From the NCBI GenBank assembly GCA_043812495.1, contig JBDRMG010000020.1:1-47932 (forward strand): DNA of 47,932 bases, given 5' to 3'. The position numbers and the translations under genes were made by a program. Shown in pieces: positions 1 through 47,932 of the stretch (positions are counted from its first letter, which is position 1; the number at the start of each line of letters is the position of its first letter). A model generated the notes under the pieces. The model saw nothing but the letters and a program-made list of their open reading frames with translations, was not told the DNA's origin and made no database searches. Source of the stretch: Candidatus Omnitrophota bacterium. GTDB taxonomy: Bacteria > Omnitrophota > Gorgyraeia > Zapsychrales > JBDRMG01.

Positions 1-141
1 AAGCCGAATACCTAACTCTACTACGCTCAAAAATTTCACTTCGTTTCATGTTTGAGCTTCGTAGAGTTCTACTTTCGCCTTTCCGCCCAAAATCTTTGAT
101 TTTGGGCGAGATCTCGCCCTGCTTTGCAGGGCGGACATCCC
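1..141. repeat. 141-bp terminal direct repeat, left copy
   Basis: Identical to 47792..47932; 141 is a common final assembler k-mer size. Confidence 0.97.
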
Positions 142-3100
142 CGTGGCAAGCCACGGGGTATTCGGCGAAGTAGAATAATACATCCAAAACCTCATGGCCA
201 ATCACACCTTTAGCAACAGAGAGATTGTAACTTATTGTATGGATATCTACACCTATCCTTCCAGCCGCTTCTTCTCTGTATCCATATATTTTCAAACGAC
301 CTTCCCCTGCTTTGTCTGTGCCTCCATAAACAATATCAAGATAATTTATCTGTCGGCGAGACAAGCCACAGCTTTCAAATATTCTTTTTCTATCTTCTTT
401 ATCTGGCGTTCTTTCATAAAACCTCCTAAGCAATGCATCAATCATGTCGCTAGGATAGACATCGGTTAATTGGTATGTTTTTAACATGTGCTCAAATAAA
501 TTAAACCCGGTCCTTGTGCGCAGATCCTCTTTGATTTGCGCTAACCTTTGTTTTTGCTCATCAGTCAAAATCTTTTGCATATCTTTATGCCGCCAAAATT
601 CATACAATTCTTCTATGCTCCAGGCTGAATTTGAATCTAATCTCTCCTGACAGACAGCCAGATAATGATCGATTCGTGCGCTATCCAGCCAAAATATACT
701 TAAGACCTTATTGATCGCGAATGCTGCTGTTGAAGTACGCATATGAAGCGACTTGGCAATCTCCACTCCAGTGTTATCTGCGGCAATCAATCTGATGATA
801 TCTGTATCGATATCCCTGGCTTCAATTTTGAACTTTATTGCTCTTAAATAATAAGGGTACAACTCCCTGATTCTTTCGCATAACCCTGGATATCGGCTAA
901 TGAGGGCCTCTAATTCTTCGGCGCGCAAGTTTATTAGATAAGCGCGCATTTTAGTGCAATCGCTTGCCAGAACTCTGGGATATTTCTTCGTGCCATTAAG
1001 CATAACGATTATTTGATCCAAAATATCAGGATAGGCGATGACATTGGGCGGGACTGGATCTAAATGATGAGGATAAAAACCTCTTTCGGGTATACGCTTT
1101 CTATCAATTCCTCCTCCTTGACGAATAAAGCGCAAGGCCTTGCGCTGGCCGCGGAGTATTTGTTTTCTCTTGTTAAAATCAACCTGAGAGGATTGGACAC
1201 CAAAAAGCATATGATACGCGCTATTTAATTTTTCAAACTCCGCCTCACTTAAGTCTCTAACGGCCTGCATCGCAAAGCCATTCACGACGCGGACATCCTC
1301 TTCGGCTAGGCGCTCTAATTTCTTCTTGAATTCTACAAACTCTTTTCTCATTTCAGGTATCCTAAAGAAACAGTTTAAATAACCGTATATTCCATCGCTG
1401 ACTATATCATTGTAATCCTCTGCCTTTAGATCCTTTAATGCACGGTTTTGATCGCTCTCGCTCTTAGGATGAAGTCTCTCAACAGCAAACCGGACAGCCA
1501 TATCCTTTATGTCTGTACCTTTGGATATCTCATCTAAACATCTTCTCATTCTTCCAAGAGTCTCTTCTGTGAGACGTTTTGTTTTTAACGCAGCGGGAGC
1601 AAGGCCAATGAGCTGCTTTATCCTTTCGGGATTCTTATCTCTTGCCAAATATAAAAGTTGGGCAAGAATATAATAGTCCTCTCTTGAAAGTGCAATCTCT
1701 TCCTTTAACTCAGACCTTAGTTTAGCGGCCGCTTTTACATAATCTCTAAGGCCTTTTTCTGTCTTAATCAATCTAACGACCATTCCTAAGAACACCTTAT
1801 ATAATGTCTTGTCTGCCATCCTCAGAGTTCCTGCCATTGATTTAAAACTATAAAGATTTTTATCAAAGATGCGCTCTAAGATCTTTGATTCCAAACCATC
1901 GAATTGCTCCTTGAGCTTAGCAAGATGCGCTGAAATATTTTCTCGTAGAATTCTTAAATACCACTTGGCCGCATATATAAGTTCTTTCTCGTCTATCTGT
2001 TGCCTATCTATTCTTATCATCCCTACGGTCACAATCGGAAATGCAAGCTGGCTTACAGCAAGTGCGCCAGCAGACCCATGCAATCCTGGGGCAAATATAA
2101 TAAAGATCCCAAGGGCCAAACCAAAAGCCGCGGTTATTGCAAGTAGTCTGTAATATATGTTTGACTGGAGATTGGAGATTGGAGATATCTCCCATCTGCC
2201 GTCTCCCATCCCGCCTTTGGCGAGGCTCGCCCGCCTCGGCCTTCGACCGAGTCGAGGCCGGGCCTCCGGCGGCTGCCATCTCTTAACTACTTGCCCTCGC
2301 GGCTTAATCATCTGCGTTAATCTGTGTCTACAATCTGCGTCAATCTGTGTTTCCACCGGCGCGCGGATGCGGATTTGCCAAATGAAGTAAGCTATCAATA
2401 TCATGGTCATCATTCCCACGCCCACAGCCACTGGCAGGAGGAAACAGCCGAAGCCAGAGCGCTCAGAGATACCTTTATCTACTTCGGATAAGAACTGACG
2501 TATAGGCATCGTATTCCAAACTTTTATATCGCGTCTCGCAAACATATCGATAGCTGAATCATATAAACTAAGGGGCTTATCAAGATTTATACCTCCTTCG
2601 ACCAAAAATCTTACCACCCTGATGATCTCATCGGTTAAAAGCCTCTCATAAGAAACTCCGTAGGCGCTCTCAGCTAGTTGTGATTTTGCTTTAACAAATT
2701 CTTTTTCATCTTCAGGCAGATCGATGCGCAGAAAACCTTCAGCTGAATCAGACGATTTTCCTAAAGAACCTCGCAAGCTTGCAGCTGCCCGTTCATCTCG
2801 ATTAAGGCGTTCGGTCATATCTACTTCTTTATCTGTATACTTGTACCAGTCACCAGCATGGCTTTCCTGAAACTCTCCTTCTTTATCAACTACATTACGT
2901 GGATAAGAATAAAAGGTTAACGTCTCATCATCAAGCCACAATACATCAAACACAACTAAATCATCTTTAGATTCCCCTACATCTTGAGTGAGTTCAATCA
3001 CTGCTTCTCGTGGCATAATAGGATGAAAGGCGCGAATATTTAGAATGAATCTTTTTGTCCTGACAATAATTACACTCCTCTTTGTAGCTTCGCGAGGACC

Positions 3101-6100
3101 CCATAATACAGGATGACCTTCCCTGCTTTTATCGTTCGGAAATATATAATATTGCGTTATTAGAAGCCATGCGGCATTAAGGATGATTGCATTTGTGGTT
3201 ACGCCCAAAATTTCTTTAAATATGCTTATGACTTCCTTGCCAAACTCATCAAGAATGCCTAGGCCAGGTCCAAAAGAATCAGGATAAAAATCATATGAAT
3301 TTAAGTAACGGCGTATACGATTATTCAATTCCTGCAATAATGCAATTCCTTTAATTATGTCTTCTGGCATATCCTCTACTCTTAAATTCTCCTCAGAGAT
3401 TGAACCTATACGCCGAAGAGCTCCTGTTACTGCGCTATAATCAAGACTGCCTAAATCGCTTAATAGACTATTTATATCCTTCTCTTCTTCTTTAAAAGAT
3501 TGTACTTCTATCCCCAACGTCCCCAACATATCTATCCTGGATACCTCTTCGCCTTTTGCATATTTCAAGATAGCAGTGGCTACCTCCCCAAGTTGCGAAG
3601 CGATATCTCTTTCTTCTATTTGTGCTGGCCATTGTCCTAAAAACACCAAGACTTCCGATTCATCTTGCTTTGATCCATACCTTTCAATCAGCTTCCCCAA
3701 CGCAGATCTTAAAATTGTTGTATAATCTTTGCGATCTTTATTTCCTGCTAGAAAGTCTTCTCCTAATGTCATAAGTAAGTTTACAAATGCTGGACACTTC
3801 GGTTCCTCCTCCTGGCTTAAATCCCAATCAAGATGCATCTGTAAAATTTTCACTACCCGCCTACTAGCTGTGAAGTAAACATTCCGCTCAAAAGCATTAT
3901 GCTGTCCTTTGTTTTCACGTAAAGTCTTTAATAAGTCGAATAGTTGATGTGTAAATTTATCGATACTCTGACTACTGGAAAGATCACCATCCACCATCCC
4001 CAACGCAGGCGGGAGGAAGGCGGGAGTTATGACGAGAAGTAGGGTGGCAGCGATTGGAAGAGCGTATAGGGTATAGGGTCTAGGGTATAGTTGAGAGCCA
4101 TAAGCCATTTGCCATATGCTATAAGCTAGTATGCCAAGTAAGACTAACCCAACAACCGCAGGCGATACCACAAAGCAGTCGACGCTCGTGGTATCTTCTG
4201 GTGCGGTAGGTGGCTTACTGTCATACCAAACTTTTATATACTCATCAAGACAAGAACTTATATACCTTATTGACCTAACCACTAATTCAGTATCTTCCTT
4301 AAATCGATTTACTTTATCCTTGAAAGCTGTATCGCCCAAAGCCAAAACTTTATCTCTTAATTCTTCAATAAAAGGAATCGGCATTTCCATTATACTTTTA
4401 GCTTGAGGTAACATCTCTAAAGGAAGCCCCAAATCCCCCCGTTTCCAAACTCCATTCACTAGACTCTTCAACTTCTCTGATAGCGTAGAAAGTTTGCCGA
4501 TCATTTCATTTATAGAGGGATCTTGTTGCTTCCATATATACTGTAATGACCTATCTTGAGCTAAATTAATCAGTCTTTCTAGGTTTCTTATAACCTCGAC
4601 TTCCCACTGCCAAAAAGCGATTAAAAATTCTTCATCTCCAGAGAAAAATTTCTCAGCTTGTTCAGATAATGCTCTAAGCCACACATCTAAAACAGTATCA
4701 AAATCTATTTTTGGTTTCTGGTCTTCTCCATCCACCATGCCCACCAGCCCCGCTGCCAGAAATGTTGCAAACATTTCTAGCGGGGCCACAGGCACCAAAG
4801 GTGCAATAGAAAGGGCTTCGGCTGCGCTCAGCCCAAGGGCCGCTGGGCCAATCTGACCGCTGATGGCTGACAGCTGATGGCTCAACAGGCCCAGCGGCCC
4901 AAGGATGATGACAATAAAACAAGAAGCCGTGAGGGCAAAACTCCATTTAATATAGCCTGCTTGCCCTCGCAGCTCGCTCTGTTTTCTGTAATCTGTTCTC
5001 TGGTTTCTATCGACATCCGGCCCCCTAATCATTCTTTGCCAAATAAAGAAAGCCGTCAATATTATTACTATTATTACCACAGTCTCTGGCAGGACAAAAC
5101 AACCAAGGCTACACATCGATGGAGAGGCGATATTATTATTAGTCCTAGCCCATGCTGGCGGGTCATGTTTAAAAGCTGGAACAGGCTCCCAAATGGCGCT
5201 TAATGGACCAAATGCTTCCACAAACCGTTCCAGCACTTCATTTCTTGGCCCTTCCCACCATCCTCTTCCTCTGACTCTAGGTTGAGTGGAAACAGGCAAA
5301 ATTCTAATCTCCTCAAAATGCCGTTCGCCTATATCAATGAAATAAAGTTCGCATTGAATGCGTATAGCGAAATATCTTCCGCTTTTTTGCCGCTCCTGAA
5401 TTGTTGCCAGCGGCGCGGTATCAAATGCACTGATTTCTATTCCTGCGTTTACTTCCGGATAACCGATTTCACGGGTGCCAAACAAAGTGATAATCCTTCG
5501 ATGGATTCGGTGAGGATATCTTCTTATATAAGGCAGGTTGAACCAGTTTTGCACTGCAGAGGCAGACGGCCATTCAAAAATATACTCTCGTCCGAGTGTT
5601 AGCGGCATTACGCGGATAGCATGTCGCGCTCCCTGGAAGAATCCGAAAATTGTGCCTGCGACGAGTTTGGATGTCTTATTTTCCCGGTCTAATGGTGGAG
5701 CGGTTTCAAAAATATCAAATAATCTGACGGAAGGATTCTTTCCCGCCTGATATGCTAATCTCAATATGACTTCCCCTGGAACGCCGTCTTCATTTTTTGC
5801 GCTTCGGCCTGGAGCTTCTTGTCGATTAACGACATCCATGCATATGGAGGTGTGAATTGTATCTATCCCATTATTTTCGAGTCTCTGGAATATCTGCTTT
5901 ATCAATAAATCAAGCTTGCCTTCTCTATGTCGATTTTTTACTTCTTCGAGTAAATGGATATTCTCCATTGTCAAACCTTTACTCATCAAGAATCTTAGAC
6001 GGCTGTTGAAAAATTGCGCTTTATCTATCACCCCGATATAATGCAGGTTCTCGCTGGAAACATTGCTGCCTTCCCGGGTCATTGTGGCATAGAAAGGCGT

Positions 6101-9100
6101 GCCGCTGCTATATCCGTCCATCCGGCCGCTCGTTCGGCTGGTCATGCTCCTGGCGTCTAGATGTGCATCCGCCACGACAATTCCCTTTCGGCCTTTGAAG
6201 GTATAGAAATTCGGATGGGCGAAACCGTGGTCGCCTCCGATGGCAAGAATTGTAATATGAGGATTTATTTTCTGTATTTCGGAAAAGACAGCCTCTACAT
6301 TTCGATAAGTGTCGGCAATGATGTCAGGATAGGGACCGCCATATTGCGAGGAGATCAATTTGTGCTTTTGAGGATTATATTCTGACACCTTAATATTGCC
6401 CAAATAGACTATGATTAATTCCCCAATATTCTCTTTGCCCGCCAAAGATAATTCAGCGCGATCAATAAGGTACTTTATAACCTCGTGAGGTCCGAATTTT
6501 GCCCCCGGTCGGCCAAGATTCTTAATGGCTCCCGTATCGTCTGGTTCCCCTATGATGACGATATCCGCATCCCCCAAGAGTTCACGCGTAGGTTGCTCTC
6601 CATCCCAGATATGAATTATTTTTGAAGAAAATTGTCCGGATTGCGGAACAACGAATCTTCTAAATACGCTATCCCCGGCTTCTTGAGCATCTCCTTTTTT
6701 GGATCCTGTGGATAGGAAATACCCTTCAAGTTCCCCCATGTTGTTTACAGTCTTATCGGCGCCGGCGTTATTAAGTGTTTTTTCTATTTGATAGTGTTCT
6801 GGCAACCTTAGTTTTCTAATATTTATTGTGGCCTTTTTTCTCGTAATCTCCTCCACGGCCCGCGAAACCAGCTCAGGACTAATAGCATTTGCAAAGCCGA
6901 TGAGGGTCAGGTTTAAATCAGCCTTCGCGCGCCTCATCAACTCTATTTCACTTGTAGCATCGGCGACAAAATAGAACCTCTCTATACCATGCTTTCCCCT
7001 AATATAATCAAATTGCGACTTACCTTTTTCTAATATGATCACCCCATTCTCTTTTCTTTCCCCATAGGCTATGAGGTATTGTCCAATTTTCTTGCCTAGT
7101 TCTGTTTTAAGCCATCGCTGGATATCTTCATCGGGATAACCAGAAATGAGAAACTGCCTTACTCCGCTTGCCTGTAGCTTCTTGAGCAGTTGCTCTGACC
7201 CTTTAAATAATCCAACACTTTCGTAGTCCCTCTCGATATATTCATTGTACAATTCGACGATATCATCCAATGACGCCAATATGCCTTGGCCGTGCTCCTG
7301 TTCGAATTTCATCAACTTTTGTCTGACATTCAATCCGGAATATTCAAAAAACTTATTGATCAGGTATTCCAGCGGATACTTTTGCCTATTTTCTTCTTTT
7401 ATATATTTTCTTGCGGCAATAGCCGTTGCCGTAAAAACAATGTGCATCTTTTCAACAAGCGTGCCGTCCCGGATATAGACAACGCCTATTTTATGATTTT
7501 CTATCCGATAAGGTTCTTCTTGATTCTCCATCGTTCCGATTTTGACCATCCCCGCCAAAGGTATCAAAGAGAAAATATGCAAGAAGCTAAGGGCCGCTGG
7601 GCCTAAGCTGCTTAAAGCAGCTAATGCTCCTCCACCAGCCACGGTTGAGGTAAGAGCAATCAGGCCCAGCGGCCCAAAGAAGATGATGATTAACCCAAAA
7701 ACCGCTATTGAAAGTGCACCAGCCGGCGCGCGAAAAACGAAAAGCGACCATGCGTTTGCTTTCTTTTCTGCTGGTGGGCCCTGTGCCCTTTTCACGATTA
7801 TGATCATGGCAAGAATCCCAAGGATCGCTAAGAAACCCAGCACCAGCAACAACTCCCCGGCAGATCCAGTCTGCCATAGTCTATCAAAAATTCCTGGAGA
7901 GGATAGACCCGACGGCACAGGGAACCCGATAGAACATCCGAGGGTAAGTCTCCCCGCCTTATGAAGTTTTCTAAGCATCTTAACGATCGTTACATGAAAC
8001 ATTCCTTTTCGGGTCAAAGTAAAATCCTTTGCTTCAATGTTTTCACGGATTTTGACGAGAAACGAAGGAATGTCCTCGTCCGTATAATTTTGATATGCGG
8101 CGACTGTTTCTAATATAAGCGTCACGACTGCAAGGTCTAGAATATTTGCTCTGCAACCGCGTTGAGGCGATTGGCGCGCTCTCATTCCCCATCTCCAGCC
8201 TTCTGATCCAAGTCCAGCAAATAAGCGCCTTAGGCGCATAGTATTCCGAAATGTTCCGAAGAAAGTCCCTGTCAGCCATCCGATGGCCTTGAAATCGAAT
8301 GCCTTTAATGCCCGGAATAATTGAATGAAGAAAGCACGGCGTTTTCCCAGGCCATCCTGAAACAATACGAATACCGTCTCAACAATATGCTTACAAATCA
8401 GCGACGAGGCCTTTGCCTCCATGTCCTTATTGATCTTTTCTATTCCAATGTTCACTTTTTTCAGGTATAAATATATGTATGAGACCACAAGGGACTCCAG
8501 AAGAGATCGAGCAACGAAGACGCAAGGCCATCGCTTTGCTGGAGCAGGGCAAGAAGCCATCGGAAGTAGCCGAAGAATTGGGAGTAGCCCGGCAGACGAT
8601 AAGCTGGTGGAAGAGAATCGTCCGGGATTACGGGAAAGATGGCTTGAAGTGTCAGCCCCATCCGCATCGCGAGAGTCAGCTATCTTTGAAGCAGAGACAA
8701 AAGCTCCAGGAACTTCTCTTGCAGGGTCCTCAAGCACACGGGTACGCAGACCAGTTGTGGACGCTGGAGCGAATCGCGAAGGTAATAAAGAAACATTTTG
8801 GAATCGGCTTTCACCCAAGTCATGTCTGGCGGATATTACAAAAGCTGGGGTGGAGTTGTCAAAAGCCGGAGCGAATCGCTCTCGAGCAGGATCACAAGAA
8901 GGTCGAAGAGTGGCGAAAGAAGACCTGGCCGAGGTTAAAACGGGGGAAAAAAGGTACTGGTCTTCATTGACGAGAGCGGGTTCATGCTGCAGCCCGTTGT
9001 CCGTCGGACGTGGGCGCTGCGGGGACAGACGCCCATTCAGCGTCAATCCCAGAAACATGATCGACTTTCGGTTATCAGCGCCATCAGCGTTTCTTCCAGC

Positions 9101-12100
9101 CGCAAGAAGTTCAATCTTTACTTCACCATCCACTCCGATAACATTCACTCCCTCGAAGTTCTCCGATTTTTGGAAAGACTCTTGCGAAAAACTCGGGGAA
9201 AGATTGTCCTCATCCTTGACGGTTGGAGAGTTCACAAGGCCAAGATCCTCCGGCAATTCTTCCAGGAACATCGTGACAGAATCCAGATTGAATGGCTCCC
9301 GCCCTACTCTCCCCAGCTCAACCCTGTGGAACCTGTCTGGAGTCATACCAAATACGCTGATCTGGCCAATTGGGCTCCTGCTGATGTTGCCAAACTTCGT
9401 TATGGCGTTCGCGTTTCGCTCAAACGTACCTGTTCCAAGCAAAAGCTTCTCAGGGCTTTTTTCAAAACTTCCGGCTTGGAAATTTGATTCTGATTCTTGC
9501 TTGAGGGTCGCTGTAGATGAGTTCATGGATAATCTTGGTCTATTCATATTGGTTAGGAAAAGGTCAATAACTTGGGTTCTGAGCTGTATCATTCTTCTTT
9601 TTCTTGGAATTTCCTCATTATCCAGAAAATCCTGAATGGTCTTTTTCAATTCATCACTTATCCTTGAGAGGTCGCCCTGCATCGTGGTTAAGTTGTCTCT
9701 CCTGATCTGCCAGTCCCCCTCTTCCGTCTTCCTGTCCACATAGCGGTCTAAGATGTCCCCGAGAGTCTTTAAGGATCGCTTAATTATTTTTTCTACGTCT
9801 TTCGTTGCCTCTAAGAGCAATAACAATCCTTTGGAGACTTCCTGGAATAATTTCTTCTCATGGGCTGTTTTAATTTCTTGCATTTTTGCACGGACTTCTT
9901 CGATCTCTTCGCAGACTTGATTCAGCTCCCTGTTGATTTCGGCGCACCGTTCGTCAAATATTCTTCTTGAACGGATACCGGAGAATCTTTCTCTGAAGTC
10001 CACATGCTTAATGGTCACATTAAGACCTTTAGCCCCCGATCTTATTTGCTCTATACGCTCCTCAAAAGAGACAATGGCGCGCTCCCTGGCTGTTTGTATG
10101 TTTCGATCAATGCTGTTCAATGCACCGGATAATGCCTTGATCGCGGCGTTCACGCAACCGGCGCTTTGCTGATGGGGAGTATTTTCAAAATCACTTATTT
10201 GAGCCTCCAGGTCTTCCGACAACCTTTCGACATTCCTGATTTCTCCGTCTTCTGCCCAGTCCTTGATTCCTTGCAATCTCCGCGCCAATTCTTCTGCGCG
10301 CGTTCTGAATTGCTTCAACCGGCGGGCCGCAAGAACCTCGTTCATGGGTTTTTCTACCTGATCAGTGTCTTTTTTCTTTCTAGGAGATCTGCGATTGACA
10401 ACAACTTCGTGGGCCGCTTTCAGAGCCAGTTTCAGGTCAGGGTTTGGATCTCCATCTTGAAACAGCTCCTCGGGTCTCTGGTGATGCGGATACAGCTTGG
10501 AATAGGGCTTCCATAAAGCTTGGTTGCTGACAATCAGCAGGCTCACTTTGATATACTGAATCGCTGTTTTTGCTTTCCCCATATACTGCATAGAGCCTTC
10601 ATAACTACCGACGCCTCTATCGCCGTTGAGTTGTTTTATCTTCAGCTCTGCCGATTTCCCGATATCTTCCCGCGGCGCATCAGCCGCAGAATCCAATATG
10701 ACAAAGACGCCTTTCCCGTTCCCTGCCGAATAATTAAGAATTTTCATCATCTCGTCTTCGTCTTTAAGTCCCTCAACGCCAAAGTGTTCAGTCAATAGAT
10801 GGAAAAGTAACGGCCTTGGTTTTATTTTTCTATGGGAGTGTTGCTGCCGTTGTTTGATTTTCACCATACCCACGACAAAGGCAAGCATTATCAAGCTCAA
10901 CAACCATCTCCACTCAATTCCTAAACTTTCAAAGCCCACAAATAACGGCGCAACAAGAATCTTGCAATCGCCTGCTTCTAATCGGTCTTTGATGGATATT
11001 TGCCCGGCATCCACCATGATTTCATTATCGCCAAATTTCGCACCCTTCTCTTCAAGATAACACTCTAAAGAATGCGGGTTCGATGCCCTTAAGATCACGC
11101 CGATCATAAACGGCCAGTAGTCGATAGAGTCAAAAATAGAACAACCGCTTCCCGGCATTCTTATCCGGGTTGTGCGGATGTTTTGAAATTGTCTCTTACG
11201 AATGGATGAGCAAACCGGCGTTTCCGTGGAAAGATGAATAATGTTCTTCAGGTGGGAACTATTGATCGTGTCTCTTTCTGAGCGCATTTTGCCGTCAATC
11301 GCCACAATGGTCGAGACAGGATAATCCTTTTGCTCGATGGCCTGGACCCAAAGCTCAAAGGCTTCCTGGCAGCAGAGTACAACAATATCCTTTGAAGATT
11401 GTGCATAAGGATCATCCTCGAATTTCCGGATAAGCTCTTCAACGAGCCTGTTTTGCAAAACGTAGTTTTGTAAGAGATCTTTGAAGATTCTTATGGGCTT
11501 AAACGGAATGCGGCTTTCAAATAAAGGAACAGGATGGATGCGGACATGTCTTTTGAGCAAACGGACAAACGGTACCATATCATTGGGCAGACCCGGACCA
11601 TAGTTGTCAATGCCATTCGTGACGGCATAGGACGTTTTGCGCAAAAATCCTGATGGGACGAATCGCTTTTCTTGAAGAACCCTCTCAAGAACTGCCCACT
11701 GCTTAAGATCACGGAGACATTTCCTTGCTTGTGGTGTATTGATGCGAGCGAGAATATCTGCCAAATGGTGAGCATAATCGGCTTCAACTGCGTATGCCCA
11801 AAGGAACATTTCCTCATCACAGATACGCCCGACTAATTGATCACCATAGGCAACAAGGCTGTTTTTGACTTCCTCAAGTTCTTCTTCTGTACGCTCTCTA
11901 AACTTTCTGCCCGTGCGCTCTTTGCCAAAGGACCGAATCATATGAACAAGGGCAAGCATTAATTGATCCATCGCCTCATTTGTCCTGATTGCGCCCAAAA
12001 GCCTCACCGCAGCGATCCGTTGTTGTTCTTTGGGATAAGTCATCACGGCATACATGGCCCGGTCGAGTTCGCAAAGCGCATCTGGTCCCATTGCGCTCAG

Positions 12101-33664: not shown

Positions 33665-36600
33665 CGGTCGTCATGTCCTCTTTGGCTTCCCTGTAGGCTT
33701 TCTGCCAGTTATCGGAATGACACCGCAAGATCAAATCCAACCGGCAACTGCTGAAATCAATGCCGGAGGCAAGGATCGTTTCTTCCAAGAAAGGATCCGC
33801 GTAACGGAACAATAAGCCCGTCAGGTCAAAACCCCGTTGCGCGCGCATTAATTCACGCAAAGATGGAATCTTTTCCTTGGCAGATACAGATGGATCAAGA
33901 AGGCGTTGGATAGGTGCTTCCTGTTCGGTTCCTTTGTTCATTTCGTTGATCCAGACAGCAAAAACCTCTTTAGCTAAACTTTCAGACTCTTCGATGTTTT
34001 CTTGTTGTCCGTTTAAGTGGGCGAGTTCGTGCACAAGGATACGCTTGAGGAGATCGATTTCACCGGCTTCGATGAGAAGACTGATAAGACCGATGGGAAG
34101 GTAAATGCCTGGTTTGATGCCACGGCCCTTAACCGTGACGGCGACAAGGAACCGCGTGGCCAGGATAAACCATAAAAATGGAAACGGCGGTGCGCGGGTC
34201 TGCTTACGCGAAGCGGTTTTGACCAGTCGTATCATTTTGTGGCGCAGAAGCTCAAGAACATCGGGATAATCTCTTAATGCGTCAACAGCCCATTGCGGAA
34301 TATACTTATAAACTCGATCATTTTCCGTAATATCCTCCACGACCTCCTGCGTCTTTCCCTTCGCCCATTTGTCCATTTGGCCGGATTCCGTGGAAACCCC
34401 ATAAGCGCAAGGATTGGCTTGCGGAGTACCCGCGTCCTTTCTTTGTTTTACTTCCTCCATATAAATTCTTTGAAAACGGTTAATTTTCGTTCGGACGGCA
34501 TCATCAATGCACCTTGTTTTGTGTTGATGATCAAGCATTACTAATGATTGCAGTTTAATGATCGTATTCTCGGCTCTCTTCAGCGAAAATTGACCTGGGT
34601 CCGTCAAATTTGCTTCAATAACTTCAAAATCAAATTCTATATTTTTAATCAAATCATCCCGCATGCCCATTAAACCGTTTCCATCGCGCAAACCTAGTTT
34701 ATCAGTCAACTTTCTGGCGACAAATATCACAGCCCACTGAGCTAATCTCTCCTCAATGTCATTTGATAATTCTTGAAGGCCAACGATTGATCCGGCTGCC
34801 CTCTTAAATCTAGCCTCACTGATCCCTGCGCCAAAAAGAAGTTTTAAGATAAAATCCATGGTCTCATTGTTGATTCCAAGCTTCTTTCCAACGCCATTGC
34901 TGTTGTAGCTTACCCTCAAAGGCTCCTCATCAACCTCCAAGGGTTCTTCTTGCTCTATATCATCCTCATCATAAGAATCTTCAGAATCCCCTAATTCATC
35001 GCCCATCATACTTGCCGAATATCTGTCGTCATCGTCATAAACGTTTTGAGTCCCCCAAATATTTATCTTTGAGTTCCGCCTGGCTTGGAAGGAAGCCTCA
35101 CAGTCTTCTGTTCGCTCATCCAACCGACTCCCGCTTGTCATGATCGCTTCTTTTTTCATTGTTTCGCTCATAATAGGTATAATTCTCTCAAATTCTTTGT
35201 CGCTGACACAAAATTTCCTGGCCAAATCAGAGTAAAAAACAACTTTGGGTGATGTTCGTCTGAGAATTTCCTCTTCTTTCTCAACAATCGCATTATGGAA
35301 TTCTTCAAGCAGATCAAATCCAACAATCAATTCACCAAAATTCATTTTTCTGATAAACGGATATTGATTCCCATATGTCTGATAAATCTCGTTTCTAAAG
35401 GCATTTAAATCCCAAAGAACGGGCAACATCAGAATAATTTTATCTTTGCTCACTTTCAGGAAACGCAGTAGAAAGCCGGGTGTCCGGTCAATCTCCAGCC
35501 CCTCTGTTTCGACATTCATTTCTTTCCTAAATGTTTGGAACATTTTCGTCAGTTTACCGTCCTTGCCCAGCGAAAATCCGAACGCCGGGCTTATATAGTT
35601 CATCATGCCAAGATATTTTTTATATCGTTTCGCAAATTTCTTATTAAACTCATCCTGCAAATCAAATCCTGTGATAAGGCTTGCGTAAGATTCGCTTTCA
35701 TTAACCCATCCTTCCGCAGTCACCAATGATTTAAACAGAGGAATATTCCACTTGGCGGACTCCATCAGTGCAAGAACTTTGTCCCTTGTAACACTATGCT
35801 TTTCGCATAAGAAATACCCATTTTGCCCATCATCATGAAAATTGAGATCCAATAATGTCGGATCATATGCTTTAATAAGCCGTTTTAAGACACCGTTAGG
35901 ATTCTTTCGCGGGATTCCAAAGTCCTCCGAAAGAATAGAAAAATTACCTCTTCGTCGAACATATTGCTGCCGTAAGAAAGCTTTAAAGGTCTTAAGAAGG
36001 TCAAAGCCTCTGATATTGTCCACATGGGTTGCGTAAGGAGCTGAAATAATCGTAAGCGCTTCTTCTCTGAGCGCATACAAATTAAATACATCATTCCCGA
36101 TAACTCCTTCTTCTTTCATGCGCCTCAAGAAATCGGCTCGGCTTTCTTCCTGCATGCTCAAAAGATATCCGGATTTACGCATTAATTCCTTAGCTTTCCG
36201 TTCAAGATTAATCCCAAAGTGATTAACAAGACCAACGGAAAATGATTCGGCAGCTTTTGCGCTGAATCCAAAAGCTTCACCCAATGGAATGAGGGAAAGT
36301 CTTCCTGATTGTATATGCTCCATTGCCTTTGATCTGAGCTCAGCGCTGATAGCAAGACCATGGAAGAAATCCCACCGAGGAACAAAATTTGTAATATATT
36401 TTGAGTATTTTTCTTCGAATTCTTTTAAATTCCAGCCATCACCTAATTCTGCGAGAATATCACTTTTTGTTTTTCCCAGCGCCCCAAGCAACCAGCCCCG
36501 CTCTTGGACAATGTTCTTCCTTTGGGTTTCAAGATTGACGCCGAGACTTTGAGCTATTTGAGAAACGAAAGCATAACCGCTCATGATACCATAATAGCCA

Positions 36601-39600
36601 AAACTCCGACCCAGTTGATCAATTCTTAAGGCGGATGTTCTGAATCTCTCAAGAAATACTTTCTTGATTTCATTCGATATATTCAAACCAATTAAAAGCT
36701 CATGATGAGTAAAGTAGCTTGATGCTCCGATTTCCCTTCGAAATGCGTTAAAGTCCCAATTCAAATCTCCTAATCTGTTTAAGACTTCAACCTTTGTTAA
36801 TTCATAATGTTTAAGCAGTCCGTCTTTTTTCACCATTGATTTCGCGCCCTTCTTTCCTTCTTCTGCCTTCTTTATGATCCCCACCACTCCCAACCCCGCC
36901 AGGTGCGCGAGGGAGACAGCGCCTGCCTGCGTCATGAAAAGGTAAAGCAGGCCCAAGGCCGCGAGGAAAACAAGGCAGGCGGCCGCTGTCGTTGAAACAG
37001 ACTTCACCGCGTCTTTGATTTCCAAGAGAATTCTGCGGATTCTTTCCCTGCTTAAGTTAAGCGAATTCCCGATATCTTCATAGAATTCTCTTTTTTGCGC
37101 GCGTCTTAAAATTTTTCTATTTCTCGGATGAATACCTAAATCGCTCAGGTGAACCGGCTTTTGCGCCAGGAGCTCATTGATTTCGCGGACCAATTGACTT
37201 GGTCGTTTTCTCTTTTTAGCGTTTCTCTTCGTTTTCTTTCGAGATGTCTTCTTTCTCGACGAAGTCTTGCGCGCCCCTTTCTTCATCGGCTGGATACCGC
37301 GCGACAAAAGAAAGTCGGGCCAGCTACCATAAAGCCGCTTGACGGCAAGAACAAAATCCTTGTAGCCGACCCTGACCCAATTGACACGATACCTTTTGTC
37401 TTGGATGCCTTTCGGCGGATGATTAAATTGTTCTTCTATGTCTGCTTTGGTCCACAGGCTGGCGAGAAATTCGGTCCAACCGCCGTAGAGCGTATTGATT
37501 TTTTTAAGCATCTGGCCGTATCCCGCCTGTCTCCATCCTTTCGATAACCGCGGTTTTTTGACAGTGTCGGGAGGATTATTGTATATGGCTTCTATTTTAC
37601 TTCTGCTCAACCGGCCAAGGTCAATCACTTCACGCGCCGGTTTTTTCCCGGATCTTTCTTGCCGGCAACGTTTGACAAATTGTCTCCGTTTCTCGCTCAA
37701 CTCATCATCGCCGATATAGCGCAGTACATAAGAATAAACCGTGGTGAAATGCACGCCTAATTCCACGGCCATGTCCGCGTAATGCCCATGATGCTTTTTG
37801 GTCAATTCCCGTATGCGACGCCGGCCCGGAAACCGATCCGATTTGGGGCCGGTCCTGATCACGCCCGATAAACCAAGCGGCATGGCTTTCATGACGCCAA
37901 GCGAAGTGAGAATAGTTGAATGATCGAAGCCGCCGGAATAGCCAATAGACAGCAATCCCAGACCAGCCAGAATCACAACGCAAAAACCAAAGAAGACAAG
38001 AGAACCACCGCCCCTCGAAGATGGAGAATTCTCGCATTTTCCTCTCAGATCTTCACTTAATAAGGGATGAACGGTTTCTTTTTCATTTTTCGCTATGCCT
38101 TGAAGGGCAGCGCGCGTTTCCTCGATGGTTTGCCCATCGTTCAATTTTCCTGTTTTGATTTGTTGAAGAACAATCTGAATGTTCTGAATGAACTTTCCTT
38201 TTAATATGTTAAATTCTGTGAGTTCCTCCGATATCCCTTCCAAAACTTTTCTTACGCCCGTGACTATGGCATACTGGGCGGGCAGATTATCCGTCTTTCC
38301 AAACTTCTTCTCGACCATTTTAGACAGATAAAGTCCGGGATTTTTCGCGCGAATCTCGCGCAAGCAGAGAATAAACATTTCAACGTACGTTGGATTTCTA
38401 TTTGCCAGGGCCTTGACCAAAGGCTTGCTGACTTCATAGGGACTCTTTTGAGAGATCTTAAGCAATAAGGATTTGGCTGCTTTAACGCGTTCTGGATTTG
38501 GATCAGATAAAGCGCCCACCAAAGGCTTGCTGACTTCATACGGACTGCTTTGAGAGATCTCAAGCAATAAAGATCTGGCTGCTTCAACGCATTCTGGATT
38601 TGGATCAGATAAAGCGCCCACCAAAGGCTTGCTGACTTCATAGGGGCGACTCTCAGATCGTCTGAGTAATTCATGACCAACCTCTTCTTCTCGGCCTGGA
38701 TATGTCAAAATGGCCACCAATTCATTTATTCTTAGTGAAGCGATATCCTTCACTGATGAAATAACTCCTATTGGGAATTCTCTGGTTCGAGCGGGCAATT
38801 GCGCTTGTCCGCGATCTAGGCCTCTTAACATTCCTACGAGATCCGGTGTGGATCCCGAAGCTATCGGGGATTTGTCTTGATCGTCGCTCTTGCTTGTTTT
38901 CGGAGATTTTAATTCTTTGCGCTCATCACGCGTGAATAGGCTTTTTTTGCCAAGTTCTTCATCTTGCATGACAATCATCTCAAGCTCCGTGCGGATTCTT
39001 TGCACTTTGGAAGGGTTCGTCTTGTTATCGCCTAGCTTGCTTCGCGCCTCGTCAATAGCACCCGTTAATTCTTCTCTCAGGGATTGGAACACCATGCTGT
39101 CTTTGCCTTGCGTTTCTCTTAAGCTCAGAACAAGGGCGTATTTGACGGCAAGATTGATTCTGTTTCCAAACTCTCTTTTGACTTTTTCCGGTGATGCAAT
39201 GCCCTGGAGAATGGATGAATTGCTTCCAAAGGCATTTTTCAATATACTTGAAACAACATCCGAGGAGCGAATTTGTCTTTTTCTTGCAACCATACCAAAG
39301 AGAACCAAAGACACATTAAAAGAAATCGAGAGTACTTGAGAAAAGACATCGGGTCCAGGGAAGTTAAGGAGATGGGATAAAAAGGAGTCAAGCGAAAGGA
39401 CGCCGGCGGTGCTTATTTGCGCAAAGATATCGAACCCGTCCGGACAGCAAAGGAGTGCAGGCAAGTGCGCCAAGTGCGTAGGGATCGTTATCGCCGAAAC
39501 AAAGGTCAAATCAAAAAGACCAAGTATATAAGGAAGAACGGACACAAACGCCAAAAATGGAAACAGCGGGAGGATGCACAAGGTCTCTGGACCGCTTTGA

Positions 39601-42600
39601 GGTTTATCTAATTCAGAAATAACGTTTTCGAAGGCGGGAATCAACTGCTCTTTGGCGGGTTGATCTTCTGTTCTCGCGCGACGCAGCGTCATGAGCGCGA
39701 AAGACAATCGAACGCTCACAAGAGACATGTCTTTGTTTGCGATACGTCTATTTGGTGGGAAATAGTTCTCTTGAATTTCTTCACAAATAGAGATGGCCGC
39801 ATCGAGTTTGTCCTGACGGATAAGTTCTCTGGTGATTTGAAGGACGGTTCGGATATCTTGTTGGACGACCTGACGTTCCTGATCGCAGTCCATGGGGAAG
39901 GAAACGAACTTGCGGATAATTGCAAGCGTGTCTTCAAGCGAAGTTTTATAATGTTTAAAGGTCGCGTCTTCGTCTTTCAATGTTTTTGCGACAACAATCG
40001 CTGTCGTCAACCGGTTATTGACTTGTCTGATATGGCTATTTTGCTTATCTTTGACGCGCGCCTCTATGGAGAAATGTTTCTTTCGAATCTCTTGCAGGAT
40101 ACCAAGCGCCCAGTCGAAGCGATCCTCTTTGATCGATCTTTGGGCCAACTCAACGGCGACTTTAAGTTCTTCCTCGCGCGTCATGCGGCTGCGCAATTTG
40201 TTCAAATAATCAGAAGCCTGGGAAAGGGAAATGGCGCGCATGCGCTGAAGCGCATCCATGCGGTCTTTGAATTTGTGGATGGCAGCTTCGAGAGATTCAA
40301 CGGTTTTTACGTAATTCCCGGATTTTAAGTATTCCTCAGCTCTTTTTAAATCTGGCAGAGCGGTCTTTCTGGCCTCATCAGAGACTCCGCGTTCAACCCA
40401 TTCTTTGGTGCGCTCAATCATCTGAGCGGCTTCCTGATGGATCGCCATAGAAATACTTTGGTCTCGTTCCGTAAGCTGCTTAATCGTATGCTTTAAGTGC
40501 GCGGCAACATCAAAAAGCGTCATGTATTCTTTTGTCTGGTTCACATATCTATGAATGGCCAGGCGAACAGCCTTTTCAAAGGACGAGACTTCCACAACAA
40601 TTTCTTTTTGTATTTTATAGACTCTGACTTCGCCTGTTTTTAACCGGACGTAGCGATTGACCCACGGCCGCAGGGCAACCCGAACAGCTTTGTTTTTCTT
40701 AACATCCACAGTCCAGCCTTCTATCTCTACAGAATCAAGAAGAACATGCATCCAGTCGCTTAGATCGATGTTGATGATTTTTCTTTCCTTGATTTGCCTG
40801 ACGCGCATCCAGTAATATTCGATATTGATGAGAATTTGCATATTATGATAAGCGCCGTCGATGCAGGCAAGGGCCGCCGAGAATAATTTCTTTTTCAAAA
40901 ACAGAAGCGATAATTTCAGCTGCACTCTTGTCTTCAGCCATAACAGCTCACGCTTTTGCTGATTAAGCTTGGTCAGAAGCTCATCGTCTTCCTTTTTGTC
41001 TGCGGACACAATCAGTTGATCGATTTTGGGGATTTTTTCTTTTAGCTGCTTAAGAAGCCGGCGTAAGGCATCGACATCCTCTGTTTGATCTCTTTTGGAC
41101 TCAAACGGTATTTCATCCGTAAGACCCTGAAGTTCGTCGCGAAGGACTTTGTATTCTTCTCTTAATCTTTCAAGCGCACCGACCTTATCCGGATCATTTT
41201 TAAATAGAGGACCTAGCGTAGTCACTAATTCCAAGGCGCGATTGATCTCAACAAACTTTTTGCGCATATACCGCGCCAGGCCTTCTTCTTGATCATCATT
41301 GTCATTGGCCTTTTTAACCATCGCCCCCAGCGGAATCAGGGCGAAACTTGCCGTTACATTCCATCCGCCCTGCGGGTCAAGACCGATCAAGGGTAGGATA
41401 AACAATATAAGCACACCTAGCCCCAAGGCCCCCAAAGCCCTTAAGACAAACTGGGGATCAACGGGTAAATTCTCGAGGATTTTTTCCCTGGATTGTCCAT
41501 CAAAATTCGAAGAGGCCTTGAGCATGATCATCAATGCTTCTTTTTGCGGGCAGACAAGAATATCTCTTAGGCGCTGACCACCATACCTTTGATATCCCGT
41601 TTCCAGCTCTTCATCCGACTCCTCTTCCAGTTTTTGCAGGAAACGCGCCAGCAGATACCTCATGAAATCCCGATAGCGTGGATGTTGCCGATAATGATTT
41701 AAAGTTTCTTCGAACTCAAAAGGAGACGCTTGTTCGGGAACAATCGGTTCCGTTAAAGACCCGAGGGCCAAACGATTCCATTGGTAGTGGATGCGCTCCA
41801 TGATTTGCGCCTCAAGAGACGGCCCGAGCACAGCAAACGGGATGTCGTCCTGAACACCCGAAAGAATCTTTTCGCTTCTGAATTGGGCTATTTCTTGAGA
41901 ACGGAAGTTTCCTCCGTCAACGGATTCCAAGATCCGGCCCAATTCATATTGCAATATTTTCTTTGTTAACGAAAATGTTTGGATGACAGTTGTCCGGCCA
42001 TACGTTCCGTAGACAAGCTGCTGGGGTTCTTTACTTTCAAACTCGTTGAGTCCTTGCATAACAAAATTAGCGCGGTTGATCAAGAAAATTAAGGCAAGCA
42101 AGCGATAGATTTGCAGATCCGGCGTACCGGCTTTGCATATGATCAGAAGATTATTAAGATCGTTTAAAGGTGCGCAAATTTCATTGTTGATAAAAGCGAT
42201 GAGCTGGCGGGATGGACCTGAAAAATTCAATGGTGAATCATCGAACCGGTCAATATTGGAATAGGTGGCCTCGGCCAATCGTTCCTTTTTCTGGTTGTAG
42301 AGATAACTCTTCACGGCCAAAGCAATGCTGTCAATGGACTGGCAGACATGGCTCCTGACAATGCCCCGGAATTCATCCTTGTTTCCGGCTATTTCATAAA
42401 TCCGCTTTTGCGGAATTCCGTTTTTTTCGCTCAGGGTAATCCCCAGCGGGAACAGCGCGGCCAGCGCAGAGGAATAAAGACTATCGACAGCAGGCTTTAA
42501 AACTCTTTCGAATGCTTCCCGGAAGGCCTTTGTCAGGACCTCCAAATCCTCATTTTGATAACCGTCGAGAATCATCCCCACAAGCGGCAGAAGCAGGAAG

Positions 42601-45600
42601 AGATCGGGAAGGAAGCAGCCTAAGACAACACCTGCCTTTACAACTTCCTCTCTGCTTGTACCGGCAAGACTCAGAATTTGCTCTCTTTCTCTGGCGATAT
42701 TGGTCTCATATTCCACTCTTAAAGGTTCTTCCTGATGAGGAATACCCAGATTTTCCAGAAAGTTTCCTTCTAAACGATTTTTTCGCTCGTCAAAAAGAAT
42801 TTGAATGAGTCTTTTTGTTAAGTAGAGCCGCCTTGCGGGGCTTTTTAGAATTTCGTACATAATCGCATAAGGATGAGGACATACTTTTACTCTTTCTTTA
42901 AAATCTGGCTCGACTTCTTGTGTTAAATCTAAAAGTATGCTTGGCTTCATTTCCAAAACCCATGTAATAGGATCATCTTTGGCTCGATTGAGGATATCGG
43001 ATAATTCTTCGTCAATAATGTTACCCATTGAGAAATTTGAATAGAGAATATCGTAAAAATAAACGTTTCCATCTTCATCAAAATATAAATATTCCGGCTG
43101 CCAATGATAGGCTGTATCGATACCCGAGAGAAAATCTTCCGTAGTGCCCCAATTACGGATATATTGATCTTCACCTAACAACTCCGCATAACCTACTCTA
43201 TTAACAAAATCTCTTATGACGGTAATGGTGTATCCAGCTTTTAGGCCGTTTATAAATGTTATTTCATCTATTATCGGCAACTCAATATCTTGGGCTTGTC
43301 GATCTTTCAGAGTTATAGTCTCAACAACTTTATGTACAGGGCCTAGTTCTCTTCGTCTTAATTCTTCAACCAACTCTTGAATTCTCTGATCAAAGCCAGG
43401 TTCATGCACGCTTCTTATCTGAATAGGTAGCTTTGGCATATATCTCACAGCGACTTCGATAATATTTGCGACATGGGAGATAGGTAATTTATCTTGATGA
43501 AAGCTATCAAAGGAAATGGATAAGCAAAATTCGTAGTCAGTATCATTTTTCATTTTTGCCATGACGCATGGTCCTATAAAGGCCATACGGGCAAGGGTCA
43601 TTCGGAGGTCCTTTGTAACATCTGCATTGATTTGTAAGACTAGAGGAAGATTGATTTCGTCCATCAAGAATTGTACGTCTGCTTGAGCAAAGCCCAATGT
43701 GTTTCCGCCAATAATCGCCACAGCTGTAAACTCAGGAAAAGACTGGACAGAAGACAATATTTTTCTGTACATTTCTTTCCTTTGCTTCCAGGCCATATTT
43801 CTTGTCTTTCCTTTATAAGCAAGCTGGCAATGAGTGCATCCTGTGACGCAACTTCGTGTAACCTGGATATTGACAGTATCATTAATAAAAATAATAGGAT
43901 TAGGAATGCTTGTCATAGAAGCTAGTTGAGCGACAAGGTTTCTTCTTTCTAGATCAACGCCCTGCCCGATCATTTCGTAATAGTATCTTGCTTTTGCTTC
44001 AACAATCCTTTTCGCCAAGCCACGATTTGAATCCCGCAGATTACCTGCAATAATCATGCCAAACACAGGCACAAGCAAGAAGAGATCGAGGGGAAGGGCG
44101 CAAGCCAACACAACTCCCTGATCCGAACAATCTCTTTCTGTGAAATTGGATAAGCTATGCGGCAGCACGTCCGCAAGGTCTTGCGCATCCTTCAAAATTT
44201 CATCGTATTGCTTAAGGTCAACGCGGGTGGAATGCCGTAAGTTCAATTGATAATTATCAAGGATAAGGATTTTTTCAACGACTTCTTTGAGGAGTTCTTG
44301 GGCATCTTTCTTTTTACGAAATCTTTTTAACTGTATCTGATAAGCGTTGAGGGTCTCCATAGTCTTTTTAACAGGCTGAATCAGTATATCCTCGACAAAT
44401 TGTCGGTCGACAGTGGCATTTCTTGAATTTCGACCGTTGGAGACTTTGAGACACTCTCCGTCTGTGGAAAGACAAAGAATGTGCTCCAGGGCCTCAAGAT
44501 AACGCGAAGCCACCCGATAAGTCATGATCGCCCTTTGAACACCGGCCGATGATCTTCCTTTTTCGCTCCTGGCTTCTTTGACGGCAGAGGCAAAATCAGA
44601 ATCCGCTTTCAAAAGTCTTCCTAAAGGCCAGCGGAAAGTGTGATAGCCGTCCGTTTGGCTATAACCTAATTGCCTGCCTAAAGAGGCGATGGTTTCACCG
44701 TTGGCCAAGCCTCCTAAAACAAAAACTTTGAGACGGTCGGTGAGCGCCCCTTGATACAACTCAAAGAATCTCTTGAAAGTCGGAAATCTTTCTTCAAAAA
44801 TATCGACCAAACTCTTAAACGCAAAACCGACACGGTTTTGCGTGGAGCGTCTGCCCATGATCTCGGTCAAACCGTAATACTTTCTCATCGTACGAATCAA
44901 ATCAGCCAATAGATTCTTGTAAACTCCGTTCATGTCTTCCTTGAATTGCTCATCTTCCGCTTCAAGCTCTGCTATCCATTTACGCAAAGTGACTTTGTCG
45001 ACACCAATTTGTTTGGCCGTTGCGCGCAGACTGCCTTTCTTGATTCTTAACCAGTAAAGAATGCATCGTTTTTGCTCAACATAAATAGGTTTGACTTTTT
45101 CTTTAAGATCCCCATCGCCGTCTCTAATAACACGGGCCACTTCTCGTGCGGATAAGCCAAGGATCTCGGCGGCTTTGAATTTGTTTCCTTTGGCTTTCTT
45201 GAGCGCCGCTACAAAAGCCACTCTTGAAATTTGTTGTTTTTTACGTTTAATGGTAACGGTAAGATTGTTTTTCTGATCAGTTTTTTTGGTCATCCCGACG
45301 ATTACTGGAACAAAAGCCAAACCAGCGGCGGATGAGGCGGGAATGAGGACGAGAAGCAGGATGGCAGCAATTGAAAGAGTGTATAGCAGATAATTAGGGA
45401 CGTCTTTCATTCTGATCCCAAGGGTGTCCCCATAAGCTCGCCTAAGGGACAGGCTTAGGTTACGGCTGAAGGACGTCCCTAAACGAAGGAGGTCTTCGAT
45501 TGAGAACGGCACCAGGGCGCAGTGGAGGCTAACAGACCCATCCAAACCTTTTTCGAACAATCCAACAAGAATTTCTTCGTTAAACGGTTCGTTGAATCGC

Positions 45601-47930: not shown

Positions 47931-47932
47931 CC
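47792..47932. repeat. 141-bp terminal direct repeat, right copy
   Basis: Identical to 1..141. Confidence 0.97.

Follow-up and report, generated by a model that had tools for sequence, protein, structure and literature searches.

The window analysed here is an entire contig (C20; 47,932 nucleotides, nt) from an Omnitrophota genome bin of 1.94 Mb in 66 contigs (90.5% complete). Its minus strand carries two giant open reading frames (ORFs), A and B, in which soluble modules alternate with hydrophobic linkers, and several of these linkers end in a short conserved motif around Gly-Met-[Val/Ile] (GM[VI]), termed here the exit cap. Giant frames make up about 14% of the bin: 13 of them fill or nearly fill their contigs and sum to about 90,500 amino acids (aa; about 270 kb), the biggest being those of contigs C65 (25094 aa) and C53 (11238 aa). 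The original prediction had treated positions 2000-45400 of the window as a single gene. This is wrong by at least one stop codon, at 33576, which splits frame A from frame B, the latter starting at 33664. Within the overlap of the two frames we found neither a homopolymer run nor a classical slippery site, and the sequence GAGGA lies 11 nt upstream of the frame B ATG; the overlap is a gene boundary, or else a frameshift or an assembly indel.

The exit cap and the anatomy of the linkers

All twelve linker ends quoted in the original prediction are present on minus-strand frames, the coordinate given for each being the low base of the Met or Ile codon, which is taken as position 0 below. Residues -9 to -5 are hydrophobic across these 12 linkers. 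Pro occupies position -4 in six, and position -3 is Leu, Val, Ile, Ala or Thr in every one. At -2 there is a V or F in 9/12, the remaining range including A and L and never Gly, and this is followed at -1 by Gly in 11 linkers and by Ala in one. Position 0 itself is Met in 10/12 and Ile in the other two (codons ATC and ATA), position +1 is Val (six), Ile (five) or Thr (one), and position +2 is Lys or Asp in seven, after which charged residues follow.

Hydrophobic segments were called from Kyte-Doolittle windows, which gave 76 segments in 30 regions; topology was assigned from hydropathy and flank charge only. GM[VI] occurs in eight of the 76 segments, against a mean of 1.2 after within-segment shuffling, and a count of eight was reached by one of 5000 shuffles. 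When at least two charged residues are required behind the motif, seven segments remain (shuffle mean 0.8), a number that none of 5000 shuffles reached. The same-genome control comprised 1319 ordinary ORFs, in which 7 of 1792 hydrophobic segments terminate in GM[VI]; in frames A and B the figure is 8 of 70, an enrichment of approximately 29-fold. The comparison with shuffled segments was the check that the original prediction had named for its own refutation, and it came out in favour of enrichment; the exit-cap motif is real and enriched. The cap is present at only about 13 of the 30 hydrophobic regions, and GM[VI] ends 0/85 and 0/37 segments in the giant frames of C65 and C53, respectively.

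It had also been proposed that many linkers begin with a Cys. A Cys lies within -6 to +7 of the region start in 11/30 regions, compared with 4.2 expected from the overall Cys frequency and 6.0 from local shuffles, and region ends carry one in only 3/30. The claim therefore stands as far as enrichment over shuffles goes, but this entry cap is weaker than the exit cap, since 79 of 5000 shuffles reach 11. Both caps are carried by about ten linkers, as judged by eye. A [CFILVYM][FILVA][LIV]P-type pattern was found at 5/30 region starts versus 23/459 in ordinary ORFs and is barely enriched.

In the short linkers the two caps nearly touch (VVLGC-FLPDLFLLLPLV-GM and VVLAC-ALPLDLFLLVPVF-GM). The long linkers comprise a Cys cap, a first helix ending in IWQ, a basic loop, a second helix with GPLGL, an exit segment rich in Ala, Gly and Pro, and the exit cap. 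Four long linkers align as paralogues, and nothing in that alignment is invariant except the Cys, an Ile within IWQ, and the exit cap's G and M, so that the constraint lies on the caps. The cap codons vary among linkers (GGG, GGC and GGT; GTT, GTG and GTC), which places selection at the level of the peptide rather than of a DNA site. The same synonymous variation led us to reject a DNA-level recombination site or mobile repeat. No curated NCBIfam model scored any of 23 linkers above its cut-off; LPXTG_anchor came closest, reaching 12.8 of the 15.9 bits required.

Different anchor families are used in other giant frames of the bin. Linkers in C19, C35 and C52 run from '(I/L)P.DF.F.LTSPE' through a G.G-containing helix to [GA]M[VA] and a cluster of basic residues; C19 contains eight copies of this type, which are internal and have a PEP-CTERM-like look. 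[GA]M[VIMAL] ends 5/14 segments in C19 and 4/7 in C52 versus 31/1792 in ordinary ORFs, and the Met of C19-type linkers lies 2-4 residues inside the helix end.

Cargo modules, relatives and inserted DNA

A Pfam scan of the 29 inter-linker modules returned matches at E<=0.01 for 14, eight of them above the curated cut-off, and none for the other 15, with about ten kinds of domain in total. The modules above cut-off are EamA with PHP, HTH_8, HEAT_2, two methyltransferase modules, Pkinase, TPR, and arginase with HAD, and sub-threshold matches include Sigma70_r4, CheR and P-loop. Module 3 has a CxxxCxxC motif that is kept in relatives, for which reason we call it radical-SAM-like by eye. No Pfam domain crosses a linker in any of the 29 modules, and the alternation of soluble module and linker that had been proposed is borne out. 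The description of the cargo as 'effector-like' found no support, the modules being a kinase, methyltransferases, PHP, HAD, arginase, HTH, HEAT and TPR; the cargo consists of cytoplasm-type activities. Neither a peptidase family nor a SecA family was detected among the 29 modules, the latter result covering the window only of a gene that runs past the contig. Frame B also contains what looks by eye like an internal duplicate of a sigma-r4/HTH-like module, at aa 985-1110 and 1425-1550 (about nt 30335-30712 and 29015-29392), which does not appear in the BLAST table and follows the pattern NFSFVYW.LL.D.QR.VL..HQAYYA.FG.YPTQE.LG.LA.MTDGR.WQ.IHREINPFLEIFDLPTLE.

Searching 400 other genomes of the phylum with residues 800-1800 of frame A gave a match in 11, the best being a 10383-aa frame in genome G393, which shares 36% identity over 529 residues with A 1267-1786 (E 7e-94). 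Where module 3 meets module 4, this relative has NGGVSG-GMLQEW in place of the window's AGVVLG-CFLPDLFLLLPLV-GMILDG; 13 hydrophobic residues are gone and the G-M is kept. The hydrophobic piece thus comes or goes as one block, and the G-M doubles as the opening of the module behind it. The string NGGVSGGML occurs twice in the G393 frame, and by eye none of its 13 hydrophobic regions carries a cap.

Residues 800-2900 of frame A retrieved only themselves among 5368 candidates of 2614-8320 aa, and an exhaustive search with B 9480-10600 produced six matches (best E 3.1e-10), all in inter-linker modules and none entering the hydrophobic part of a linker. A two-row alignment used to search genome contigs, and a search of metagenome contigs, returned no relatives. 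With a linker model (A2), seven of 400 other genomes of the class gave matches, all weak (best E 6.7e-4, 20.7 bits); these lay in frames of 45-368 aa and none of them in a giant frame. One of the proteins matching B 9480-10600, P0006 (5021 aa, from another organism), has 2-oxoacid:ferredoxin oxidoreductase-like and aldehyde/proline dehydrogenase-like parts, read by eye, which are divided by a recurring soluble junction G(A/S)SSP(V/A), sometimes in the form ...SSPAQEENRNVPIF.

Both ends of the window consist of the same 141-nt repeat, which also terminates C39 and C63 and has a 99% copy near the end of C32. It forms three hairpin-forming palindromes just upstream of the frame A ATG and is free of stops solely in the giant frame, such that frame B continues across the repeat into frame A's N-terminus, MKRSEIFERSRV.... 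We conclude that the repeat is an intergenic-looking junction held in frame and the cause of the contig breaks. A circular element was considered on the strength of the matching ends and rejected, because the copies at C39, C63 and C32 identify a multi-copy repeat that breaks the assembly, not a circle.

An IS630-type insertion sequence lies antisense within frame B. It contains HTH_33 (71 bits, 8479-8970) and DDE_3 (100 bits, 8984-9487) domains between imperfect terminal inverted repeats, and is exactly 380 codons long; the giant frame and one plus-strand frame run through it without a stop, and the other four have 11-22 stops. It does not close frame B, about 380 residues of which are its antisense and not cargo. 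An empty-site allele was found in a contig from a public groundwater run, which joins 8427 straight to 9568, and another contig runs from the right end of the element into different DNA. The insertion sequence appears constructed so that a giant frame can host it and still stay open.

On the plus strand, opposite the giant frames, there are three further ORFs of 165-240 aa (29883-30605, 31322-31819 and 39660-40328), none with a Pfam match at E<=0.01. In public sequencing runs the window is present in small shares only (at most 0.12 of words), and in the RNA library X4 two 151-nt contigs match 9732-10055, which is no proof of transcription.

Table 1 Features of the 47,932-nt window, with aa numbering by giant frame
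Feature	Position	Strand	Description
Terminal repeat copy 1	1..141		identical to 47792-47932
Terminal repeat copy 2	47792..47932		spans first 16 codons of frame A and 92 nt upstream
Giant frame A	33576..47840	-	4754 aa; ATG at 47840, stop at 33576; modules EamA (10 helices), PHP, HTH, radical-SAM-like, HEAT, sigma-r4-like, others
Giant frame B	2..33664	-	at least 11221 aa, still open at contig edge, above 10,000 codons; modules HEAT, methyltransferases, protein kinase, TPR, P-loop, CheR-like, HAD + arginase, many without family
A/B overlap	33576..33664	-	89 nt; end of A, start of B; B frame = A frame +1
Linker A aa 816-851	45288..45395	-	exit cap VIVGM-TKK, without Cys cap
Short linker A aa 1241-1268	44037..44120	-	VVLAC-ALPLDLFLLVPVFGM-II; two caps, single hydrophobic stretch
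Short linker A aa 1733-1761	42558..42644	-	VVLGC-FLPDLFLLLPLVGM-IL; 13 residues CFLPDLFLLLPLV missing in G393 relative
Linker A aa 2131-2177	41310..41450	-	single strong helix and short exit segment, ends PLGAM-VKK
Linker A aa 2752-2852	39285..39587	-	ETLC-ILPLF ... VLFGM-VARKRQ
Linker A aa 3614-3656	36873..37001	-	AAAC-LVFL ... GVVGI-IKK (Ile, codon ATC)
Linker B aa 4540-4588	19901..20047	-	two hydrophobic stretches, end PVFGI-IGE (Ile, codon ATA); then protein kinase module
Linker B aa 7569-7605	10850..10960	-	DC-KILVAPLFVGFESLG ... FVVGM-VKIKQRQQ
IS630-type insertion sequence	8428..9567	+	1140 nt, TA at both ends, antisense in frame B (about aa 8033-8412)
Long linker region B aa 8504-8709	7538..8155	-	LTLGC-SIGFPVP, strong helices, end PLAGM-VKIG; then HAD + arginase module
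Long linker B aa 9517-9645	4730..5116	-	SLGC-FVLPE, helix 1 ...IWQ, basic loop, helix 2 ...GPLGL, exit segment GLVGM-VDG
Linker B aa 9827-9891	3992..4186	-	SVDC-FVVSP ...IWQ ... PALGM-VDG
Long linker B aa 10403-10550	2015..2458	-	GFGC-FLLPV ...IWQ, very basic loop, helix 2, exit segment VTVGM-IRI

Proposed membrane anchoring and the alternatives to it

The reading we favour, to which we would give about an even chance, is that the linkers form a lineage-specific family of reusable membrane-anchor cassettes joining whole-protein-sized modules. Each cassette would consist of an optional entry cap (a small residue, Cys and two aliphatics, often with Pro, as in GC-F-L-P), one to three hydrophobic stretches, and the exit cap P-aliphatic-aliphatic-G-M-[VI] with charged residues directly after it. 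Such cassettes may staple successive modules, plus the translating complex, to the cytoplasmic membrane, in which case G-M-[VI] would represent the conserved membrane-exit end of the last helix together with the first residues of the next module, and need not be scissile. The original prediction had seen in the linkers a signal for membrane insertion, export or cleavage; they are indeed hydrophobic enough for membrane entry, but the cleavage part is not supported, as set out below. Eight of the 11 called segments with an exit cap have at least two more Lys/Arg residues behind than before, and none shows the reverse. Under the positive-inside rule the Lys/Arg-rich flank of a helix is the cytoplasmic one, which places the exit cap, as predicted from charge, on the cytoplasmic side.

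Several observations weigh against the anchoring cassette, those on polarity being drawn from Kyte-Doolittle hydropathy only. By flank charge, 26 of the 49 segments in frame B are predicted N-out/C-in, nine the reverse and 14 are undecided, and several consecutive single-stretch linkers share the same polarity where a simple threaded, uncut chain should alternate. The short linkers, of 21-24 residues, stand between HTH and radical-SAM-like modules that are both expected in the cytoplasm, which makes a plain single span awkward. An AlphaFold2 model of the long linker B 9505-9655 with three paralogues gave helices with no usable packing (mean predicted local distance difference test score 51.6, predicted template modelling score 0.29). 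Furthermore, no route that we searched led to a close relative in which conservation across species could be followed.

The polarity mismatch, together with the conserved G|M bond, keeps alive a model in which the chain is a polyprotein cut between G and M at the boundary of membrane and cytoplasm, an outcome we regard as possible though rather unlikely. Each unit, M-[VI]-K-K, module and a hydrophobic tail ending in G, would then be released as a tail-anchored membrane protein, and cutting would settle the problem of consecutive linkers with the same polarity. The best-conserved positions do flank a single bond (G 11/12, M 10/12, V/I 11/12). The -3,-1 rule of signal peptidase I calls for a small residue at -1 and a small or aliphatic one at -3 after a hydrophobic core, and the caps resemble such a site, the residue at -1 being small and the one at -3 aliphatic or small in 12/12, with Pro at -4 in half of them. 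However, the Lys/Arg excess behind eight of the 11 capped segments is unlike a signal peptidase I site, and the charged residues that follow (MVKK, MTKK, MVARKRQ, MVKIKQRQQHSHRK) put the cap in the cytoplasm, on the wrong side for this enzyme. Candidate proteases exist elsewhere in the genome: an M50 site-2-protease domain in C11 (8678-9097, within a 7525-aa giant frame), a C39 domain in C45 (3485-3859, within a 5718-aa giant frame) and two stand-alone Rce1-like (CPBP) genes on contigs C2 and C57. Nothing yet shows cutting, the window's modules contribute no peptidase, and exosortase, sortase and rhomboid (PF09721, PF04203 and PF01694) have no match in the 90.5%-complete bin, a result we count against cleavage; rhomboid is present in 14/14 control genomes. 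G393, moreover, joins the same two modules through ...GGVSG-GML... without a hydrophobic stretch, and in the C19-type linkers the Met lies inside the helix end. The separation into many proteins that the original prediction had envisaged is thus unsupported. The further claim that Cys...P-x-x-G|M-[VI] is a cis-acting processing signal, and the frames true bacterial polyproteins cut by an intramembrane or membrane-face protease such as the C11 M50 or an Rce1-like enzyme, is in our judgement less probable still. A double-glycine site for C39 was rejected, because the double-glycine rule for C39 cleavage does not fit caps with V, F, A or L at -2; G393 reads GGVSGG-ML twice. An intein, 2A-like skipping and a prepilin peptidase site were set aside, as they presumably do not fit in the order of motif and hydrophobic stretch or in the residues they require.

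The modules may once have been separate, C-terminally anchored genes whose stops were lost, with the Met as a fossil start from which internal initiation may persist. Ten of the twelve sites are ATG, the modules are of whole-protein size, xKK after the Met is N-terminus-like (the first base after the ATG is A in 53% of ordinary genes of this genome), and frame B reads in frame through the hairpin-bearing repeat into MKRSEIF..., the frame A start. We nevertheless consider such gene boundaries improbable: the other two sites are ATC and ATA, a Shine-Dalgarno-like 4-mer at -16 to -7 occurs in one of 12 sites, the ATC one, versus 28.9% of 984 ordinary starts and 8.5% (28/329) of in-frame ATGs, and G stands at nucleotides -3 and -2 throughout the sites where ordinary starts have G in 13-17% at -3 to -1. 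Old starts would also leave the P-aliphatic-aliphatic-G before the Met unexplained. Alternatively, the linkers could be labile hydrophobic spacers without a specific role, short in-frame insertions spread by within-gene duplication and tolerated between modules. The G393 junction, otherwise unchanged without its 13-residue stretch, is in keeping with this, as are the failure to find the linker family outside this genome beyond the weak matches in seven of 400 genomes of the class, and the tolerance of the gene for even a 380-codon in-frame insertion sequence. We judge the spacer explanation very doubtful, since the caps persist despite divergent codons and interiors, as expected of purifying selection on the peptide, and since ordinary helices carry the motif so much more rarely. 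Finally, an artefact of chance or composition in hydrophobic sequence could draw on the modest enrichment of the Cys cap and of the aliphatic-LP pattern, but for the exit cap it is refuted by the shuffles and by the same-genome control, and as an account of the linkers it is scarcely credible.

Comparison with known systems and significance

The stop-transfer, signal-anchor and hairpin helices of polytopic membrane proteins resemble the linkers in having a hydrophobic stretch followed by a Lys/Arg cluster and helix-breaking Pro or Gly near the ends; unlike stop-transfer and signal-anchor helices, one conserved cassette is here reused at least 12 times between unrelated soluble modules, and with non-alternating charge polarity. 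C-terminal sorting signals, as in LPXTG and PEP-CTERM proteins, have a three-part layout at the C-terminus. The linkers share the motif, hydrophobic helix and charged cluster of these sortase and exosortase substrates, and the C19-type ...LTSPE, helix and RRR resembles PEP-CTERM, but all the linkers are internal with hundreds of residues following, and no cognate sortase or exosortase was found in the bin. Viral polyproteins, which have conserved P1/P1' cleavage sites, also combine whole-protein-sized modules with a short conserved junction motif; the window differs in having no protease module and a junction that is hydrophobic and membrane-like. Rickettsia palindromic elements are in-frame selfish insertions in coding genes, and the linkers are like them in being a short peptide-coding insertion in one lineage that is missing at the same junction in a relative; they are unlike them in being conserved as peptide, not as DNA, and no palindromic DNA was seen in the linkers. 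The Cys caps VLGC, VLAC, SLGC, FGC and AAAC recall the lipobox, the [LVI][ASTVI][GAS]C element that closes an N-terminal signal helix, but the Cys of the linkers precedes the hydrophobic stretch and follows polar sequence.

The architecture as such is already known for the giant genes of Omnitrophota; the cassette itself is new and so far genome-specific. The main text of a 2023 preprint describes giant genes in Omnitrophota whose products have numerous helices, suspects that these are cleaved by way of C39 and S8 domains at points it gives as unknown, and assigns a divergent SecA_DEAD domain to 'most' giants (West-Roberts et al. 2023, bioRxiv 10.1101/2023.11.21.568195). A 'multi-enzyme metabolic cluster' class of helix-rich giants, including one protein with 147 helices, is defined in the main text of a second preprint (Nielsen & Lui 2026, bioRxiv 10.64898/2026.06.07.730766). 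Frames A and B resemble these multi-enzyme and Archaeovorin-type giants, as presented in the main texts, in carrying many unrelated Pfam domains in tandem along with numerous helices, in lying on contigs open from end to end and in being suspected of cleavage, and frame B also in exceeding 10,000 codons. They differ in the Cys...G-M-[VI] cassette, which those main texts do not describe, and, from most giants of the 2023 main text, in having no SecA_DEAD among the window's modules. The words 'linker' and 'polyprotein' have no occurrence in either main text, and no paper among those searched contains both 'Omnitrophota' and 'polyprotein'.

As far as their main texts go, both preprints leave open whether a giant gene yields one chain or many products, and the 2023 one states that missing cleavage points block analysis. 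The non-alternating polarity of the linkers is a puzzle for any model, be it anchor, cleavage or another insertion route. Since the motif was confined to this genome in everything searched, it is to be seen as one junction variant among several and not as a general code. If processing were true, a dozen or more tail-anchored enzymes and regulators would be freed in fixed proportions, and the caps would be the first defined cleavage points for the giant genes of Omnitrophota. A junction motif defined to the position provides exact bonds for proteomics and exact cut sites for structure prediction.

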